A stretch of 64,000 bases of DNA. Source: Escherichia phage IME08. A program made the translations under genes and the position numbers. The stretch lies in sequence record NC_014260.1; one strand, written 5' to 3'. Numbering within the stretch: position 1 is the first letter of the stretch; every line of letters starts with the position of its first letter. This document shows, piece after piece, positions 17,158 to 55,047 of this stretch. Under the pieces are notes generated by a model that was given only the letters and a program-made list of their open reading frames with translations, ran no database searches and was not told the DNA's origin.

Positions 17158-17835
17158 TTATTTTAAAGTGACAAAAGATGAATTACGCGTTTCACGTACT
17201 AATACTGAGCCATTACGATTGATGTAATAAATCAGACTGAATAATGTTTGGTGGGCTGAAGGATGTTGGAAATCTTTAGGACGTTCTTTCCAATCAGGGG
17301 TTTCAGAAATCCATTGATAAATCCACCAAGGAACAGTACAGTAACCTGGGTTTTTACCAATAAGCAAAAGATTGGGACTAAAGTTTTCAGGGAGTTCAAA
17401 TTTAGGTTTTTCTGATTCTTTAACCAAGGTTATAGCTTGATTGAATTTCTCTTCGACAAACGGAACAACTTCTTCAATAATCTCGACCTTAGGAAGTTCG
17501 ACTACCTCAACGACTTCAACTACAGCCTCAGGGGCATCGAACAACAGGGTTGCTTCTTCTTTAGCAGGTTCGGCTCCATCAATAAATTCATTAGAACCTG
17601 TAAGTTCGTCAGCAGCATCAATCAAATCAGAAATGGACAAACCTTCGGTTTCTGGAAGTGGTTCGTCGGCCAGGGCTTTAAGACCTTCAGTGATATCGAT
17701 AATCAAATTATCAAACGAACGGGTTTTCTTAAGTTTTAAACCGAACTGTTCGCCGTATTCGATTAACTTAGCTTTAGCTTCTTTTTTATCTTCGAGTGCA
17801 CGAAGCTCTTCAATATATTGGCGGTCCATAATCAT
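17158..17835 (-). CDS. inh: Inh-like protein (inhibitor of prohead protease), acidic
   Basis: 225 aa between hoc and uvsW as in T4; assignment by position and size only. Confidence 0.55.
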   Translation of the reverse strand: MIMDRQYIEELRALEDKKEAKAKLIEYGEQFGLKLKKTRSFDNLIIDITEGLKALADEPLPETEGLSISDLIDAADELTGSNEFIDGAEPAKEEATLLFDAPEAVVEVVEVVELPKVEIIEEVVPFVEEKFNQAITLVKESEKPKFELPENFSPNLLLIGKNPGYCTVPWWIYQWISETPDWKERPKDFQHPSAHQTLFSLIYYINRNGSVLVRETRNSSFVTLK

Positions 17836-17849
17836 TCTCTTTTCTAGTG

Positions 17850-17857
17850 TATAAATA
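17850..17857 (+). promoter_or_regulatory. Late promoter TATAAATA (plus strand, toward uvsW)
   Basis: Exact TATAAATA in inh-uvsW divergent intergenic region. Confidence 0.45.
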
Positions 17858-17863
17858 TAACTA

Positions 17864-17871
17864 TATTTATA
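17864..17871 (-). promoter_or_regulatory. Late promoter TATAAATA (minus strand, toward inh/hoc)
   Basis: Reverse complement of TATTTATA. Confidence 0.45.
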
Positions 17872-17885
17872 ACTGAGAATTACTT

Positions 17886-19382
17886 ATGCAAATTCAAGTA
17901 CATTTCGATAATTTTAGTCATGTTCGTATTGAGTGTGATGAATCCACATTCTACGAACTCAGAGACTATTTTAGCTTTGAAGCTGATGGATATAAATTCA
18001 ACCCTAAATTTCGTTATGGTCAATGGGACGGACGTATTCGCCTTCTGGATTATAATCGTAAACTTCCTTATGGATTGGTTCCGCAGATTAAAAAATTCGC
18101 TGAACAATTTGAATACTCTCTGTGGATTGACCCACGTATTCTTGAACAGGAAGATATTTCTCGTGAAGATTTTGACTCATGGGTGGCATCTCAAGAAATT
18201 TATTCAGGGTCTACCAAGATTGAGCCCCATTGGTATCAGAATGAAGCCGTATACAACGGTCTAACAAAACGTCGCGCAATTCTGAATTTACCTACATCTG
18301 CAGGTAAATCATTAATCCAGGCGCTCCTGAGTCGATACTACGTTGAGAACTATGAAGGTAAAATTCTTATCTTAGTTCCTACTACTGCACTCGTTGACCA
18401 GATGATTAATGACTTCATCGATTATCGGTTGTTCCCTAAAGCCGCAATGCTTGGAATTCGTTCAGGTACTGCTCGTGATTCTGATGCAATGATTTACGTT
18501 TCGACTTATCAAACTGCTATTAAGCAACCTAAAGAATGGTTTGCTCAGTTTGGTATGTTTATGAACGATGAATGTCATTTGGCTACAGGTAAATCTATTT
18601 CTACCATCATCGAAGGCCTAACCAACTGTATGTTTAAATTCGGTTTGTCTGGTTCTTTAAAAGATGGTAAAGCTAATTTAATGCAATATATGGGTTTGTT
18701 TGGTGATGTGTTTAAACCTGTTTCCACCTCCCAATTGATGGAAGAAGGACAGGTTACAGACCTTAAAATCAACAGTATTTTCCTTCGATACCCAGACGAA
18801 TTCACTGTTAAGATGAAAGGTAAAGATTACCAATCAGAAATTAAAGTCATTACTAAGGCTACTCGTCGTAATAAATGGGTTGCTAATTTAGCTGTTAAAC
18901 TCGCTAAGAAAGAAGAGAACGTATTCCTGATGTTTAAAAACATCGAACACGGTAAAACTCTTTTTGAAATGGTTAAAGAGCAACATAAAGAAGTTTATTA
19001 CGTATCAGGTGAAGTTAATACCGAAACGCGTAATGCTCTGAAAGTAATGGCGGAAAATGGTAAGGGTATTATTGTTGTGGCAAGTTATGGTGTGTTCTCT
19101 ACTGGTATTTCTGTTAAGAACCTTCATCACGTTGTATTTGCTCACCCAGTAAAATCCAAAATCATTGTACTCCAGACAATTGGTCGTGTACTCCGTAAAC
19201 ATGCTTCCAAATCAACAGCGCAAGTATGGGATATCATCGACGACATGGGTGTTAAGCCTAAATCAGCTACGGCTAAAAAGAAATATGTTCATTTGAACTA
19301 CGCCCTCAAACACGCTTTAGAACGTATTCAACGTTATGCTGATGAGAAATTTAATTACGTAATGAAACAGGTGGATTTATGA
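17886..19382 (+). CDS. uvsW: UvsW helicase
   Basis: 498 aa; matches recalled T4 UvsW N-terminus and helicase motif NLPTSAGKS. Confidence 0.93.
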   Translation: MQIQVHFDNFSHVRIECDESTFYELRDYFSFEADGYKFNPKFRYGQWDGRIRLLDYNRKLPYGLVPQIKKFAEQFEYSLWIDPRILEQEDISREDFDSWVASQEIYSGSTKIEPHWYQNEAVYNGLTKRRAILNLPTSAGKSLIQALLSRYYVENYEGKILILVPTTALVDQMINDFIDYRLFPKAAMLGIRSGTARDSDAMIYVSTYQTAIKQPKEWFAQFGMFMNDECHLATGKSISTIIEGLTNCMFKFGLSGSLKDGKANLMQYMGLFGDVFKPVSTSQLMEEGQVTDLKINSIFLRYPDEFTVKMKGKDYQSEIKVITKATRRNKWVANLAVKLAKKEENVFLMFKNIEHGKTLFEMVKEQHKEVYYVSGEVNTETRNALKVMAENGKGIIVVASYGVFSTGISVKNLHHVVFAHPVKSKIIVLQTIGRVLRKHASKSTAQVWDIIDDMGVKPKSATAKKKYVHLNYALKHALERIQRYADEKFNYVMKQVDL

Positions 19383-19606
19383 AAACCTTTAAAGAAGTTA
19401 TTCAGGAAGCATCTATTGAAAGCTTCATGTCTAAAATTAGTTCGTGTCAGACCATGGAAGGTCTGGAGGAATTAGAGAAGTATTACAAAACTCGTAGTAA
19501 GGAAGCCGAACTTCGTGATTCGGATGATATCAGCGTACGCGATGCATTGGCTGGTAAGAGAGCTGAATTGGAGTCGATGGACGACGAGGAAGAGGAAGAT
19601 TTCTAA
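19379..19606 (+). CDS. uvsW.1: UvsW.1 small acidic protein
   Basis: 75 aa, ATGA overlap with uvsW stop. Confidence 0.7.
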   Translation: MKTFKEVIQEASIESFMSKISSCQTMEGLEELEKYYKTRSKEAELRDSDDISVRDALAGKRAELESMDDEEEEDF

Positions 19607-19862: not shown

Positions 19863-20561
19863 CTATTTATTAGCCAAATTCTTTTCAAATGTTTTAACCA
19901 TATAACCTACATCTAAATCAGGAAATCCATTCTCAACTATTATGCGTTGAAATTTCCTTCTTTTAGGCATTCCTTCCTTTATCCAAAGTTCACGGATTTC
20001 CTTTTCAAATTCCCATAATTTACTTCTCATAGAAAGCTTAGGCTGTGAATGTTTACCTATATGGGCCTCATTAGCCTCTTTGGTACGTTTCTTACCTAAT
20101 TTGGCTAATGACATAGCTTTTTTAGCTTCTTCTGTATGAGAATATGGATTTCTTTTATGACCCGCACTTATGGCTTGTTTGGTGGATTCAGACCTTGGAA
20201 TACCTCGTATTTTCGACGCACTCTTTTCAATAGATTCAGGAGAACGAGTAGTACAACTACCTCCTTCACCACCAGGTTTCATATTCATACAGCGAATACC
20301 TTTACCAAACTTATCCCAAGCCTCTTCTATCAAAAGCTCTTCGAATTCATAAGCAAGTTGTTCGGTATCGAAAAAAGTCCTATCGACTATTTCAATTCGG
20401 TATTTTAATCTTTTTGCATAATAGATGTAATTACCAGACCCTACATACTTGTCAGATATTTTATCAGAAGAATGCTTACCAAAATATCGCCTAGTTCCGT
20501 TAGGCGAGTATACTAAAGTTTGGTAGCACATATGGTACTTTTTATTTTTCACCTGCTTCAA
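19863..20561 (-). CDS. GIY-YIG-type homing endonuclease (Seg-like)
   Basis: N-terminal YxxxNG...YVGSG pattern, basic C-terminal half typical of Seg DNA-binding domains. Confidence 0.7.
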   Translation of the reverse strand: MKQVKNKKYHMCYQTLVYSPNGTRRYFGKHSSDKISDKYVGSGNYIYYAKRLKYRIEIVDRTFFDTEQLAYEFEELLIEEAWDKFGKGIRCMNMKPGGEGGSCTTRSPESIEKSASKIRGIPRSESTKQAISAGHKRNPYSHTEEAKKAMSLAKLGKKRTKEANEAHIGKHSQPKLSMRSKLWEFEKEIRELWIKEGMPKRRKFQRIIVENGFPDLDVGYMVKTFEKNLANK

Positions 20562-20979
20562 ATTTCCTGAGCTCCAACATATTCTTTAATGAGAAACCTC
20601 TGGCTTTGACTGCGTCTAAAGCCGAACTACAGAAGTCCTGTAATAAAGCCCAATACTGGATTGACGTATCGATTTTAATTACACTAGAATCTGCAGCCAT
20701 TACGGTCTTTAATTCAGACTTCTCATATTGGTCCATACAAACCTCATCACCAGGCTCTCCACGTCCCGTGTAGAAATCTAATCGCTTCTTAAGTGAGGTC
20801 TTTTTCTGGATTTCTAATCTCATTATTTCTTTCTTACAATTCGTATACAGTCTTAGCCATTTGCTGTGCAGCAAAACGTTGTTCTGTACTTCATACTGTA
20901 AACGAGTCCCATCAATCTTCAAATCTTCATCCAAAGCATCTTGAAACGACTCTAATTTATATTCAATCTCTTTACTCAT
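20542..20979 (-). CDS. uvsY: Recombination mediator UvsY
   Basis: Matches recalled T4 UvsY (KLQYEVQNNVLLHSKWL...); start set to MSKEIEY with AGGAAA RBS. Confidence 0.85.
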   Translation of the reverse strand: MSKEIEYKLESFQDALDEDLKIDGTRLQYEVQNNVLLHSKWLRLYTNCKKEIMRLEIQKKTSLKKRLDFYTGRGEPGDEVCMDQYEKSELKTVMAADSSVIKIDTSIQYWALLQDFCSSALDAVKARGFSLKNMLELRKFEAGEK

Positions 20980-21037
20980 CGCATGTTTCCTGTGTAATAA
21001 CCATAGGACCATTATACACTATTCATTTGAACAGCAA

Positions 21038-21427
21038 TTAACCACTCTGGGAGAGCTGAATTCTAATTTGCTCTAATGTATCCGGGTCATCAACGATACT
21101 AAACTGAACAGTCACGATAATCGAGTTATCATCGTACACAGGTGTCACACCTACAGCCAGGGCAGAAATTCTGGGTTCGAAGTTCCGCACAGCGGAAACT
21201 ATATTACGCTTAATGGTGTCTGTGATTAATGGAGTAATATTCTCAAACAATTGGTTGCTGATGTCACAACCGAATTCAGGCATAAAAGGGCGTGAACCTT
21301 TGCGAGTAGTAATAATACCTAACAAGCTATTTTTTACTGCACGAGCGCCTATAGCTTTAGCAACGTCTCTATTCCAAGACGTCCTCATTTCAGGGTCTAA
21401 ATCCGAATACATTTTATTGATATTCAT
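21038..21427 (-). CDS. 25: Baseplate wedge protein gp25
   Basis: 129 aa, matches recalled T4 gp25 (ITTRKGSRPF.PEFGCD). Confidence 0.9.
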   Translation of the reverse strand: MNINKMYSDLDPEMRTSWNRDVAKAIGARAVKNSLLGIITTRKGSRPFMPEFGCDISNQLFENITPLITDTIKRNIVSAVRNFEPRISALAVGVTPVYDDNSIIVTVQFSIVDDPDTLEQIRIQLSQSG

Positions 21428-22050
21428 TACATCACCTTAAAGAACTCTTTAAGTCCCTCAATAACGTGGACAGTATGTTCACCACATTCACAAGAAATAG
21501 GTATGGCCAAAATAGGCTTAGGGGCAACTAGTGCATCATAAACTTCTTTTATATCTTTTTCTGTTATCACAGAATAAAGGTCATCAAGTTCCACATCGCT
21601 TAAATCTGAAAGAAAAAGCTTTTCGCCTGTAGAAGTTAAAATATAATCGATACACCCTGCGACCATCATAGCCCTATTTTTATCTTCAAAGAGTTTAGGG
21701 TATCTGAAAACAATTTTAAAGTTGCCAAAGTCTTTAATAACATCAGGCTCTTTACCCAATGTTGCGCGAGTTAGTGTCATAGGGACAACCTGTGAGCGAC
21801 CACAACTACAAACCCACTCACGTTCTATATTCACTTCAGCTAATGAATGGGCCCACAGGTTTATCACTAGGAGCTCAGATTCTTGCTTGTTTAAATCACG
21901 AGCATCTGTGCAATTCGAAATGAGTTCATTGATAAAGGACTCTATTCTGCCTTCTAATTTAGCTTGGAGCAAGTCCTTATACTCTCTGAGGGTAAATGCT
22001 CTGCATTTTATGGTTTTGTTTTTAATTTTTACGTCAAAAGTATAATTCAT
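21427..22050 (-). CDS. 26: Baseplate hub protein gp26
   Basis: 207 aa, T4 order and length. Confidence 0.85.
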   Translation of the reverse strand: MNYTFDVKIKNKTIKCRAFTLREYKDLLQAKLEGRIESFINELISNCTDARDLNKQESELLVINLWAHSLAEVNIEREWVCSCGRSQVVPMTLTRATLGKEPDVIKDFGNFKIVFRYPKLFEDKNRAMMVAGCIDYILTSTGEKLFLSDLSDVELDDLYSVITEKDIKEVYDALVAPKPILAIPISCECGEHTVHVIEGLKEFFKVM

Positions 22051-22068
22051 TGTCTTCTCCTTTAAGCT

Positions 22069-22080
22069 TATTTATAAATA
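22069..22080. promoter_or_regulatory. Palindromic bidirectional late promoter TATTTATAAATA (serves gp26 on minus strand and gp51 on plus strand)
   Basis: 12-nt perfect palindrome containing TATAAATA on both strands between divergent late genes. Confidence 0.55.
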
Positions 22081-22100
22081 CATCAATAAGAGGACACCCT

Positions 22101-22853
22101 ATGGCTAATATCGTACGTTGTGAAATGCCTGATGGAGTCCACCGATTTAAACCTTTTACAGTAGCTGATTATCGTGATTTTATTTTGATTCGAAATGACA
22201 TGAATAATAAATCGCCTGAAGAGCAAAAACAAATTTTAGATGAGTTACTGGAAGAATACTTCGGTGAATATCCTATGTCATGGCGCCCGTATATGTTCAT
22301 TGAACTTTACACGTCATCACTCGGCAAGACCAAAATTCCTATCCGATACACTTGCAGTAAGTGTGAAAAGGATAGACAAGTTTTATTCAATTTGAAACAG
22401 GCCAAGTTAGATAATCCCACAATTGAAGTGGCAGGCTTGAAGCTAACATTCAAATTTCCGGAAATAGAATATCAAGACAAATCTGAATTGATTTTGAACA
22501 CCCTCCAAACCGTAGAAGATGAAAACGGAAAATATAATTGGACTGACCTTTCTGAAGAAGACCAATTAGCCGTAATAGATGCTATAGACTTATCCACTTT
22601 AGAGGATATAGTCAAACAAACCGGCCCTATCCACTTTGAGCTTAAATATGGGTGCTGTAATCGTAGAACAATTATGTATACCGATATTTTAGAGGTGTTT
22701 AAGCTTATAGTCAATCCGGATGAGATATTTTTATTTTACCAAATAAACCATTTATTGGTAAAGAACAATTATTCATTAGAAAGCATTATGCAGATGATTC
22801 CAATCGAACGCGGTATTGCTTTGTCTTTGGTTGAAAAGGACCTTAAGAAATGA
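22101..22853 (+). CDS. 51: Baseplate hub assembly protein gp51
   Basis: Start at MANIVRC with AAGAGGA RBS, 250 aa. Confidence 0.85.
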
Positions 22854-24019
22854 GTTCAAAAACTATGCAACGTGAAGGCTTTCCTAATATTAGTATACGC
22901 CTTTACGAAGATTATGACGCCTGGTTAGAGCATCGTTTTGTTGAACTAGGCGCAACATTTACTACCCTAACAATGAGGGATGGACTTTACGGTAGTAATG
23001 AAGGATTACTCCAGTTTTATGATGCAAAAAACCTTCATACTAAAATGGATGGCGAGCAGATTATCCAAGTTTCCGTTAAGAACGCTAACTCAGAACGTAC
23101 CCAATCAAGAATTTATGGAAGCAAACACTTTGCTGTAGGAGTGGATTCGAAGGGCGACAATATCATAACAATACAACTCGCCCCAATCCACTTTTTAGAA
23201 AATCTTAAATTCGGACGTATGTTCTTCCCTAGTGTTCAAGAAACATTAACAGAAATGATTGGTGTTATTTACCAAGACCGACCACTTCTTGCACCTCCGT
23301 TGAACGGAATAAACGTTTACGTTCCTAATGTTCCTTGGTGTGATTCAATGGACCGTTATATGGAATTTGTACGAGAAGTAGGTATGGCAGTTGAATCTGA
23401 TAAATTTGTATTTGTCTGGGAAGATATAGATGGTATTTCTATCATGGACTACGAATTTATGGTTAATCAAGAGCCAATTAATTTTGTGGTAGGTGAGCCT
23501 CGTTTAATAGGCCAATACGTCCAAGATATGGACACCCCTATCGCATTTGATTTTGAATGGCTAACTAAAGCTAACCAGCATACCAGAAAGCCGTACGAAA
23601 ATGCTACAGTATATGCCCATTCCTTCTTGGATAAAAACGCCACACGAATTACTTTTGGTGATGGACAAAACAGTATATTAGTTTCTCGTTCAGGTGGATA
23701 TTCTGATTATACCTACCGAAACGGATTTGAAGAAGCTGATAGATTGGTTACTATGGCTCAGTATGATGGTTATGCTCATTGCAAAGTATATGGGAACTTT
23801 GAATTAACCCCAGGTGATAAGATTAATTTCTATGACCCTAAAAACCAGTTCCAATACGATTTTTATGTAGACGAAGTTATTCACGAAGTGAGTAACAATA
23901 CATCAATTACAAACCTTTATATGTTTACTAATGGTAAGCCTATTAAGATTGAAGAACCACCGAAGGTTAAAAATGAACTTAAAACTGATACTCCCGATCA
24001 AGAAAATAACGCTGGGTGA
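22850..24019 (+). CDS. 27: Baseplate hub protein gp27
   Basis: 389 aa, T4 gp27 length. Confidence 0.9.
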
Positions 24020-38514: not shown

Positions 38515-38838
38515 TTATTTATACAAGCAAGGAATTGCTTTATAGTGGCAGGTAACGAATTTTTGTTTAATTTCTTTAGGCTGTTTAATACCCAATGCAA
38601 CTAAAGGATGAGGCACGTTAGCAATCTTACCAACAGGAAGTGGAGTCAAATCGCCTACTTCACAAAAACCTTCAGGGACATCAGGTCCTACAGAATAAAT
38701 TTCACAAAGTTCAGGGATTTCACCTTGATGAAGTTTGCCAATAACGATACCAGATGCAGTAGTTTCTTCATCACCAGCTTGTTTTGGTTCGGAAACGAGA
38801 ATAACATATTCTCCGACCGCTTTAATAGGAAGTTCCAT
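38515..38838 (-). CDS. 31: Co-chaperonin gp31 (GroES analogue)
   Basis: Matches recalled T4 gp31 almost throughout ([18 protein letters not shown]...[15 protein letters not shown]). Confidence 0.93.
38516..38523 (-). promoter_or_regulatory. Late promoter TATAAATA upstream of rIII
   Basis: Minus strand TATAAATA immediately after gp31 stop. Confidence 0.4.
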
Positions 38839-53835: not shown

Positions 53836-54489
53836 TTAAAACTTACAAGATTTGATAGTTTCAATGAACAATTTACGAGCTTCTAAATTATCAATTATAA
53901 GGATTTTCTTATAAGCATTTAATTTAGTCGAATACTTAGACCACACTAAATCGTTGGTCTGTTCATCATGTTTATTTATTATATCCATAAATGAATCAAG
54001 CAAAATAAACGTTTCGAATGAAATAACATTCGATTGAAGGAGCTTAAAAATATAGCTCGAGTTAACTTTTTTATTATAATCAAAAATTTCAGAAAGCGCT
54101 TGAACTTCCACTTTCTTACTAAAATAATAAATGTTTTTGATATCATCCTCAAAAACTTGTTTTATTCTTTTAAGTCTACCGATATATTCTCGGTAAAAGA
54201 CTAAGGCGTCAGCATCACTGATGTCGCCAATCCATGCGTCTTGGTTAGCCACCAAGTTACTCATGAAGATAAGAGCAAGCTCTTTCAAAGTGTATTTATC
54301 ACTCAATTTCTCAAAGAAATATTTGTCACGACGTTTTTGATAAGCCGTATCAGAGATTCGCATGACCCAGTTATATTTTATAACGTCGTATTTGGCATTG
54401 AAGTGATGTTTGAGCATTAAGTATAGTGAATATACGCTCTTACCATTCACCATACGGTTATTGTTTGGTGGCATGCGAATCTTAATCAT
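53836..54489 (-). CDS. 59: Helicase loader gp59
   Basis: 217 aa, T4 order. Confidence 0.88.
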   Translation of the reverse strand: MIKIRMPPNNNRMVNGKSVYSLYLMLKHHFNAKYDVIKYNWVMRISDTAYQKRRDKYFFEKLSDKYTLKELALIFMSNLVANQDAWIGDISDADALVFYREYIGRLKRIKQVFEDDIKNIYYFSKKVEVQALSEIFDYNKKVNSSYIFKLLQSNVISFETFILLDSFMDIINKHDEQTNDLVWSKYSTKLNAYKKILIIDNLEARKLFIETIKSCKF

Positions 54490-54788
54490 AACAAGAAATC
54501 CAGGGTATTAGTCTTTTGCGTTCGGGCCATTGAAGGTCGAAGCAAGTTATCATCAATGGCTTCGTTCATAATTTTATCAATAATTCCTGCAGGCAAATAA
54601 CGAGCAAAGTTACCTTCAGGGATGCTGTTCTCTTCCAACCATGCGGTAGCCGCTTCGAGATAGCTACATCCTTCAGCCTCAACAAAGGCCTCAATATCAA
54701 GGCCATTCTGTTGTTTGTTCACCAATACATGGACAGGTTCGGAAGCGGTATTAACCGCTCCATCAAAATCATTCAAAGATTGTGTCAT
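54486..54788 (-). CDS. 33: Late transcription co-activator gp33
   Basis: C-terminus LLRPSMARTQKTNTLDFLL resembles recalled T4 gp33 end. Confidence 0.8.
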   Translation of the reverse strand: MTQSLNDFDGAVNTASEPVHVLVNKQQNGLDIEAFVEAEGCSYLEAATAWLEENSIPEGNFARYLPAGIIDKIMNEAIDDNLLRPSMARTQKTNTLDFLL

Positions 54789-55047
54789 ACAGTTCTACCA
54801 CTTCAGTTTTTTCGTCTTCGAAACGTTCACGAGTGCCTTTATGATACAGGGAGAACAGTTGGTTAAACATTTTACCGTCTACACCAAGTTCAGTCTTAGC
54901 ACGGTCTTTGATATCTTTAATTTCGTCACCGTAAGCTTCCATTTTTAATTTAGTATCGGAAGCCGACTTAATCAGTTGTGCCAATGTGTTGCCATGTTCT
55001 TCTTGATTGAATTCAACTTTCACTTTTTCTTTAGCCATTATATTCAC
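54769..55047 (-). CDS. dsbA: DsbA-like dsDNA-binding protein
   Basis: 92 aa, position between gp33 and rnh. Confidence 0.65.
   Translation of the reverse strand: MNIMAKEKVKVEFNQEEHGNTLAQLIKSASDTKLKMEAYGDEIKDIKDRAKTELGVDGKMFNQLFSLYHKGTRERFEDEKTEVVELYDTIFE

Follow-up and report, generated by a model that had tools for sequence, protein, structure and literature searches.

Overlapping divergent late promoters predicted at a palindrome between baseplate hub genes 26 and 51 of Escherichia phage IME08

Within the 64-kb window, that is, the whole stretch of Escherichia phage IME08 DNA analysed here, two baseplate hub genes stand head to head: the homologue of gene 26 on the minus strand and the homologue of gene 51, the hub assembly catalyst, on the plus strand (Table 1). 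To the left of this pair is gp25 and to its right are gp27, 28 and 29; the region is 94-98% identical to that of JS98, Bp7, AnYang and other Dhakavirus phages of the Straboviridae. The real start of gene 51 is the ATG at 22101 (MANIVRC...) and not the TTG at 22050 given in the list of open reading frames. Between the start codons there are consequently 50 nt, and from first base to first base the distance is 51 nt, as the initial annotation had stated for these divergent hub genes. The two proteins are themselves paralogues, sharing both PF12322 and PHROG 150 and aligning in BLASTP at 21% identity over ~200 aa (E=3e-6). Their genes being head to head, the promoter palindrome proposed below falls on the axis of the paralogue pair.

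On the plus strand the whole spacer reads CAT TGTCTTCTCCTTTAAGCT TATTTATAAATA CATCAATAAGAGGACACCCT ATG. It contains the perfect 12-nt palindrome TATTTATAAATA, read directly from the sequence at 22069-22080, exactly where it had initially been annotated; its immediate plus-strand context is AAGCT TATTTATAAATA CATCAA. The accompanying claim that a late-promoter box is presented on both strands also holds, since each strand of the palindrome contains the octamer TATAAATA without a mismatch. The two octamers overlap by 4 bp, the central TATA. From the end of the plus-strand box to the ATG of gene 51 there are 20 nt, and from the end of the minus-strand box to the ATG of gene 26 there are 18 nt. 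On both sides, therefore, a box lies just upstream of a late-gene orthologue with a ribosome-binding site in between.

Table 1. Features of the gene 26|51 junction and trans-acting factors encoded in the window
Feature	Position	Strand	Remarks
Gene 25 homologue, baseplate wedge	21038-21427	-	second in leftward unit; Pfam PF04965; start overlaps gene 26 stop
Gene 26 homologue, baseplate hub, 207 aa	21427-22050	-	CAT at 22048-22050; Pfam PF12322 E=5e-51, PHROG 150; gp26 in JS98 annotation
Shine-Dalgarno AAGGAG of gene 26	22057-22062	-	plus strand reads CTCCTT; CTCC/CCTC conserved at same offset elsewhere
Predicted leftward late start, A	22063	-	six bases past box, -13 to -6 rule (PMC1524935); leader ~13 nt
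Late-promoter box TATAAATA	22069-22076	-	perfect consensus; predicted promoter of leftward unit (genes 26, 25)
Late-promoter box TATAAATA	22073-22080	+	perfect consensus; predicted promoter of rightward unit (genes 51, 27, 28, 29...)
Predicted rightward late start, A	22086	+	six bases past box, -13 to -6 rule (PMC1524935); leader ~15 nt
Shine-Dalgarno GAGG of gene 51	22090-22093	+	from sequence; A-rich run then GGAG/GAGG conserved at same offset elsewhere
Gene 51 homologue, baseplate hub assembly catalyst, 250 aa	22101-22853	+	Pfam PF12322 E=6e-56, PHROGs 150 and 634; gp51 in JS98 annotation
Gene 27 homologue	22850-24019	+	second in rightward unit; gp27 annotation in relatives; start overlaps gene 51 stop
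gp33 homologue, late-transcription co-activator	54486-54788	-	PF16805 E=1e-25, PHROG 254; C-terminus ...TLDFLL
DsbA homologue	54769-55047	-	PF11126

The late-promoter class was defined in T4. Its 8-bp TATA box, TATAAATA, occupies positions -13 to -6 without a -35 element and is recognised by RNA polymerase carrying gp55, in concert with gp33 and the gp45 sliding clamp; some 50 such sites are listed for T4, 32 of them perfect (PMC2988020, PMC1524935). Geiduschek and Kassavetis caution that some of the consensus sites are unproven as promoters (PMC2988020). Applied to IME08, the spacing rule places a candidate start on either side of the palindrome, and the leftward leader predicted in this way, 5'-AAAGGAGAAGACA-AUG, would be short, with just 3 nt ahead of the Shine-Dalgarno sequence of gene 26. 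The segments running from box to predicted start, CATCAA (plus strand) and AGCTTA (minus strand), are each A or T at four of six positions, in agreement with the A+T-richness expected there, which is a soft criterion. Neither a sigma-70-like hexamer pair or promoter nor a terminator was found in the spacer, as befits promoters that have no -35 element, and the other box is all that is conserved upstream of each.

Counts of the two motifs set the palindrome apart from its background. Over both strands of the 64 kb the 12-mer occurs once, against 0.06 occurrences expected; 6 of 100 shuffled sequences gave one match anywhere, and a chance match within a given 50-nt spacer would be about a thousand times rarer still. 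The octamer TATAAATA is present at 16 sites in the window where 6.1 +/- 2.5 were expected, a number that none of 100 shuffles reached, and the majority of these sites are followed, 20-48 nt downstream, by a Shine-Dalgarno sequence and the ATG of a long ORF. Thus, both its enrichment and its placement before genes indicate that the motif acts as a promoter signal in this genome. Between 20900 and 24100 the palindrome holds the only perfect matches; no further plus-strand motif with at most one mismatch was found in that interval, and the one-mismatch motifs on the minus strand, at 22680 and 22733, are weak and lie inside gene 51. The next perfect minus-strand box upstream is at 38516, 16 kb off. 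We also considered whether late promoters in general might extend upstream into a TATT like that preceding the plus-strand box; this was rejected, as TATT precedes no other TATAAATA in the window.

Comparison with other phages revealed how strongly the element is retained. Junctions were gathered from 14 annotated lineages and from 64 IMG/VR loci obtained through an alignment search with gp51, gp26 being located by tblastn. A divergent 26|51 arrangement was present at 69 loci (GenBank and IMG/VR together), corresponding to 41 distinct spacers, with gp51 identity reaching down to ~38%. The exact 12-mer TATTTATAAATA is found in 32 of these 41 spacers, which come from T4, Dhakavirus, Gaprivervirus, Karamvirus, Gelderlandvirus, Mosigvirus, Bragavirus, the Acinetobacter phages Acj61 and Acj9, and other genera. 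Four more, all from Aeromonas phages, have the 10-nt palindrome TATTTAAATA. Two others hold two perfect boxes set face to face, namely Ac42, with TATAAATATTTATA, and the locus L058, with TATAAATA-N7-TATTTATA. Three Krischvirus spacers have a box on the plus strand only: the Krischvirus spacer (L008, L059-L061) is 71 nt long, and a 1-nt insertion, giving TATTTTATAAATA, destroys the perfect minus-strand box. Hence, a perfect leftward box is not universal.

In all 57 loci with the 12-mer it occurs exactly once per locus and always inside the spacer. On the left it lies 16-22 nt from the ATG, on the right 16-24 nt (the range over 26 distinct spacers); the values for the window are 18 and 20. Conservation falls away steeply at its edges: the four positions on each side carry 0.1-0.6 bits, and information does not recover before the two Shine-Dalgarno regions. 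With co-oriented genes, as in Pseudotevenvirus and Slopekvirus, in which 54-51-26-25 are all on one strand, no TATAAATA was found upstream of gene 51, and a GC-rich hairpin and a Shine-Dalgarno sequence stand there. Four bases of the palindrome are especially informative. TATT (22069-22072) is invariant in the 32 spacers, serves the minus-strand box alone and is conserved only at 26|51, which argues that both strands are under selection. The lineages of altered geometry, which still possess two perfect boxes, similarly suggest that selection acts on two promoters and not on the palindrome as such. Taken together, the invariant 12-mer between free flanks, the variant geometries that keep both boxes and the loss of the element upon co-orientation support a function for both.

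T4 itself provides the closest point of reference. Its spacer reads CAT ATTTAGCTCCTTTATTTATCA TATTTATAAATA GAATAAAAGGAGCATCT ATG, with genes 26 (-) and 51 (+) 50 nt apart. The two phages are alike in having genes 25-26 leftward and 51-27-28-29 rightward, an identical 12-mer with the same 4-bp overlap, a 50-nt spacer and a Shine-Dalgarno sequence on each side; they differ in that the spacer has diverged outside the 12-mer and the Shine-Dalgarno regions, and the left box-to-ATG distance is 21 nt in T4 but 18 nt in IME08. Judged by its junction, sequence and overlap geometry, all of them the same, the IME08 element is the orthologue of the T4 P26/P51 pair. As T4 has the identical element, the IME08 palindrome can be regarded as an ordinary, already known feature. 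In 1989, Scarlato, Storlazzi, Gargano and Cascino reportedly mapped overlapping late promoters and divergent transcription of the T4 baseplate gene cluster, and Gruidl et al. are said to have analysed the T4 25/26/uvsY transcripts in 1991. The GenBank and RefSeq records of T4 hold no promoter features at 26|51. In the literature open to full-text search, no mapping or citation of the T4 26/51 promoters was found, the DksA/T4 paper being silent on the locus. A T4 dRNA-seq (NAD-cap) preprint puts the number of phage start sites at 150 (doi 10.1101/2024.04.04.588121).

RB69 offers a further parallel. Additional file 5 of Nolan et al. 2006 contains the predicted RB69 late promoters Pl:118620(+) and Pl:118672(-) (PMC1524935), and we could place both in the RB69 26|51 spacer (118623-118669), which has the 12-mer. 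Opposite-strand late promoters within the 26|51 spacer and the same 12-mer are thus common to RB69 and IME08, although RB69 belongs to the genus Mosigvirus, has a 47-nt spacer and owes its promoter pair to a computational prediction.

Of the factors that late transcription would demand, gp33 has a homologue in the window, and the gp33 and DsbA ORFs are adjacent and overlapping, with gp59, gp32 and RNase H as neighbours. A conserved dsbA-33 coupling has been remarked upon by Geiduschek and Kassavetis (PMC2988020). Neither gp55 nor gp45 was found within the 64-kb window. JS98, which is 94% identical in the 26/51 region, encodes gp55, gp45 and gp44/62; its gp55 shares 78% identity with that of T4, the central region being almost unchanged. 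From this relative, the presence of gp55 and gp45 in the genome of IME08 is very likely.

We propose, with a probability of about 0.86, that the palindrome is a back-to-back pair of T4-type late promoters, the one directing rightward transcription of genes 51, 27, 28, 29 and onward and the other leftward transcription of genes 26 and 25. This proposal, built on sequence comparison, would also account for the symmetry. TATA is self-complementary, so four bases are the largest overlap at which two divergent boxes can both remain perfect, and TATTTATAAATA is the result. Late in infection, the host RNA polymerase core with gp55 and gp33, aided by a gp45 clamp loaded on DNA, would open either box. 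We infer both the dependence on gp55 and the start sites, the -13 to -6 rule predicting initiation some six bases downstream of each box, near 22086 rightward and near 22063 leftward, to yield leaders of ~15 and ~13 nt that would each include a Shine-Dalgarno sequence. The two starts would be ~23 bp apart, and given the size of a polymerase the element should admit only one at a time. Mutual exclusion of open complexes may in turn lead the leftward and rightward units to compete for initiation. The suggestion in the initial annotation that a single element could drive both late transcription units requires some refinement: the comparative evidence supports function on both strands, but this would reside in two overlapping 8-bp promoters and not in one element.

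Could it be that only the plus-strand box, that of gene 51, works, with the minus-strand box an AT-rich by-product and genes 26 and 25 transcribed from elsewhere? Krischvirus, which retains the plus-strand box alone, would fit such an arrangement, and the weak one-mismatch motifs inside gene 51 might supply leftward starts. T4 genes 25 and 26 also occur on longer overlapping transcripts, according to a statement in PMC2988022 and the title of Gruidl et al. 1991. Nevertheless, we consider this very improbable. TATT is invariant in 32 of 41 spacers, whereas other late promoters are without conserved upstream bases; in Ac42 and L058 the minus-strand box is shifted and yet perfect; the left box-to-ATG distance is constrained as tightly as the right; and the nearest perfect alternative for the leftward unit is the box 16 kb upstream. 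It is also quite improbable that the palindrome is kept mainly, or additionally, as the symmetric site of a dimeric modulator of late transcription such as DsbA. Perfect dyad symmetry is indeed typical of dimer operators, DsbA is encoded in the window, and PMC2988020, citing Gansz 1991, reports DsbA on AT-rich sites that overlap two T4 late promoters. However, the two consensus boxes account for the dyad fully, so a binder is not needed, and lineages of changed geometry have other palindromes (TATAAATATTTATA, TATTTAAATA and, in Aeh1, TATTTAGCTAAATA); such differences between lineages make a poor fit to one sequence-specific binder. Moreover, DsbA is reported to bind with micromolar affinity, to have no effect in vitro and to be encoded by a non-essential gene (PMC2988020).

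The head-to-head placement of the paralogous genes 26 and 51 around the palindrome might invite a third explanation, in which the symmetry is a fossil of their inverted duplication, or else forms a cruciform, and has no present role as a promoter. This we hold to be exceedingly improbable. The spacer retains no more than the 12-mer and the Shine-Dalgarno regions, and since the coding sequences have decayed to 21% amino acid identity, neutral spacer DNA would have been randomised. As for a cruciform, the single-stranded DNA of the spacer folds at -2.3 kcal/mol, much as its shuffles do (z = -0.42), and a loop-less, AT-only dyad of 12 bp is a poor candidate for extrusion.

Within our preferred reading of two back-to-back late promoters, it is tempting to speculate that the 4-bp overlap is itself selected and is not mere compaction. 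The element might then be a mutually exclusive toggle, placed on the symmetry axis of gp26 and gp51 and driven by clamp orientation. Owing to the polarity of the gp45 clamp, the leftward unit would be fired by clamps of one orientation and the rightward unit by those of the other. The transcript ratio of the two units (26/25 to 51/27-29) would, if this were true, depend on the direction in which replication or nicking passes the locus. We regard such a toggle as unlikely. The element would mark the start of both baseplate-hub late transcription units in a Dhakavirus genome, and this matters little beyond annotation. The T4 arrangement has been kept nearly base for base over many T4-like genera. 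Possible uses include promoter annotation in the Straboviridae and a compact bidirectional cassette for late expression in phage engineering.

Paired late-promoter boxes are not confined to this junction. The tables of Nolan et al. 2006 contain further opposite-strand pairs, among them Pl:122785(+) and Pl:122835(-), predicted for Aeh1 (PMC1524935). Between gene 4 and the tail-tube-cap gene of Aeh1 (L082 1200-1215) we observed a perfect 14-nt palindrome, TATTTAGCTAAATA. It consists of two boxes of the variant CTAAATA, those of the two promoters just named, which abut without overlap, whereas the IME08 26|51 boxes overlap. The best leftward candidate box of Krischvirus, ACTAAATA, is like this Aeh1-type box. 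In IME08, a second divergent late-gene junction lies between the homologue of inh (minus strand, ATG at 17835, PHROG 1051) and uvsW (plus strand, ATG at 17886). Its spacer, 17836-17885, has TATAAATA on both strands within 17850-17871, the boxes facing each other in a perfect 10-nt inverted repeat, TATAAATATA-AC-TATATTTATA. With the boxes in this facing orientation and each ending 28 nt from its ATG, the predicted leaders would overlap by ~6 nt. In T4, segE is inserted at the inh|uvsW junction. The Aeh1 and inh|uvsW pairs thus resemble 26|51 in their opposite-strand boxes, a spacer of ~50 nt and an inverted repeat. A more distant likeness is to the overlapping divergent sigma-70 promoters of bacteria and plasmids, which are likewise back to back, with overlapping polymerase-binding regions and competitive occupancy; unlike them, the IME08 pair has no -35 element and no repressor/operator logic, and would depend on the phage sigma factor gp55 and on clamp-dependent activation.

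At the RNA level, Rfam gave no match in 20500-23500 at E<=1. A transcript reading through the spacer could form a hairpin with the palindrome at its apex and a stem in which the antisense copies of the Shine-Dalgarno sequences of genes 51 and 26 pair with each other. Such a hairpin is significant in T4 (z = -2.9; L001 4421-4487), RB69 (z = -2.8; L081 1115-1178) and Proteus phage PM2 (z = -5.5; L012 1445-1505). In these three phages the entire spacer is an extended imperfect palindrome, and the hairpin can arise from read-through RNA of either strand. Sequestration of the ribosome-binding site has been reported for T4 genes 25 and 26 (PMC2988022), with which the T4, RB69 and PM2 hairpins agree. 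In the window, the corresponding fold (22042-22108) has z = +0.66, no better than shuffles, and sequestration of the gene 26 Shine-Dalgarno sequence by a read-through hairpin was for this reason left out of the explanation for IME08.

Two additional observations concern the genes to the left of the baseplate cluster. In the window uvsW is an ORF of 498 aa (17886-19382, plus strand), followed by a separate, overlapping ORF of 75 aa for UvsW.1 (19379-19606, plus strand; PF11637); the T4 RefSeq record instead still has one longer uvsW and notes discrepancies in the sequence at that place. Between the homologue of uvsY.-2 (DUF2685) and uvsY, roughly in the place of T4 uvsY.-1, lies an ORF of 232 aa on the minus strand (19863-20561). 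It has no Pfam match but matches a homing endonuclease family, PHROG 314, at E=5.5e-17, and is probably a free-standing homing endonuclease insertion.
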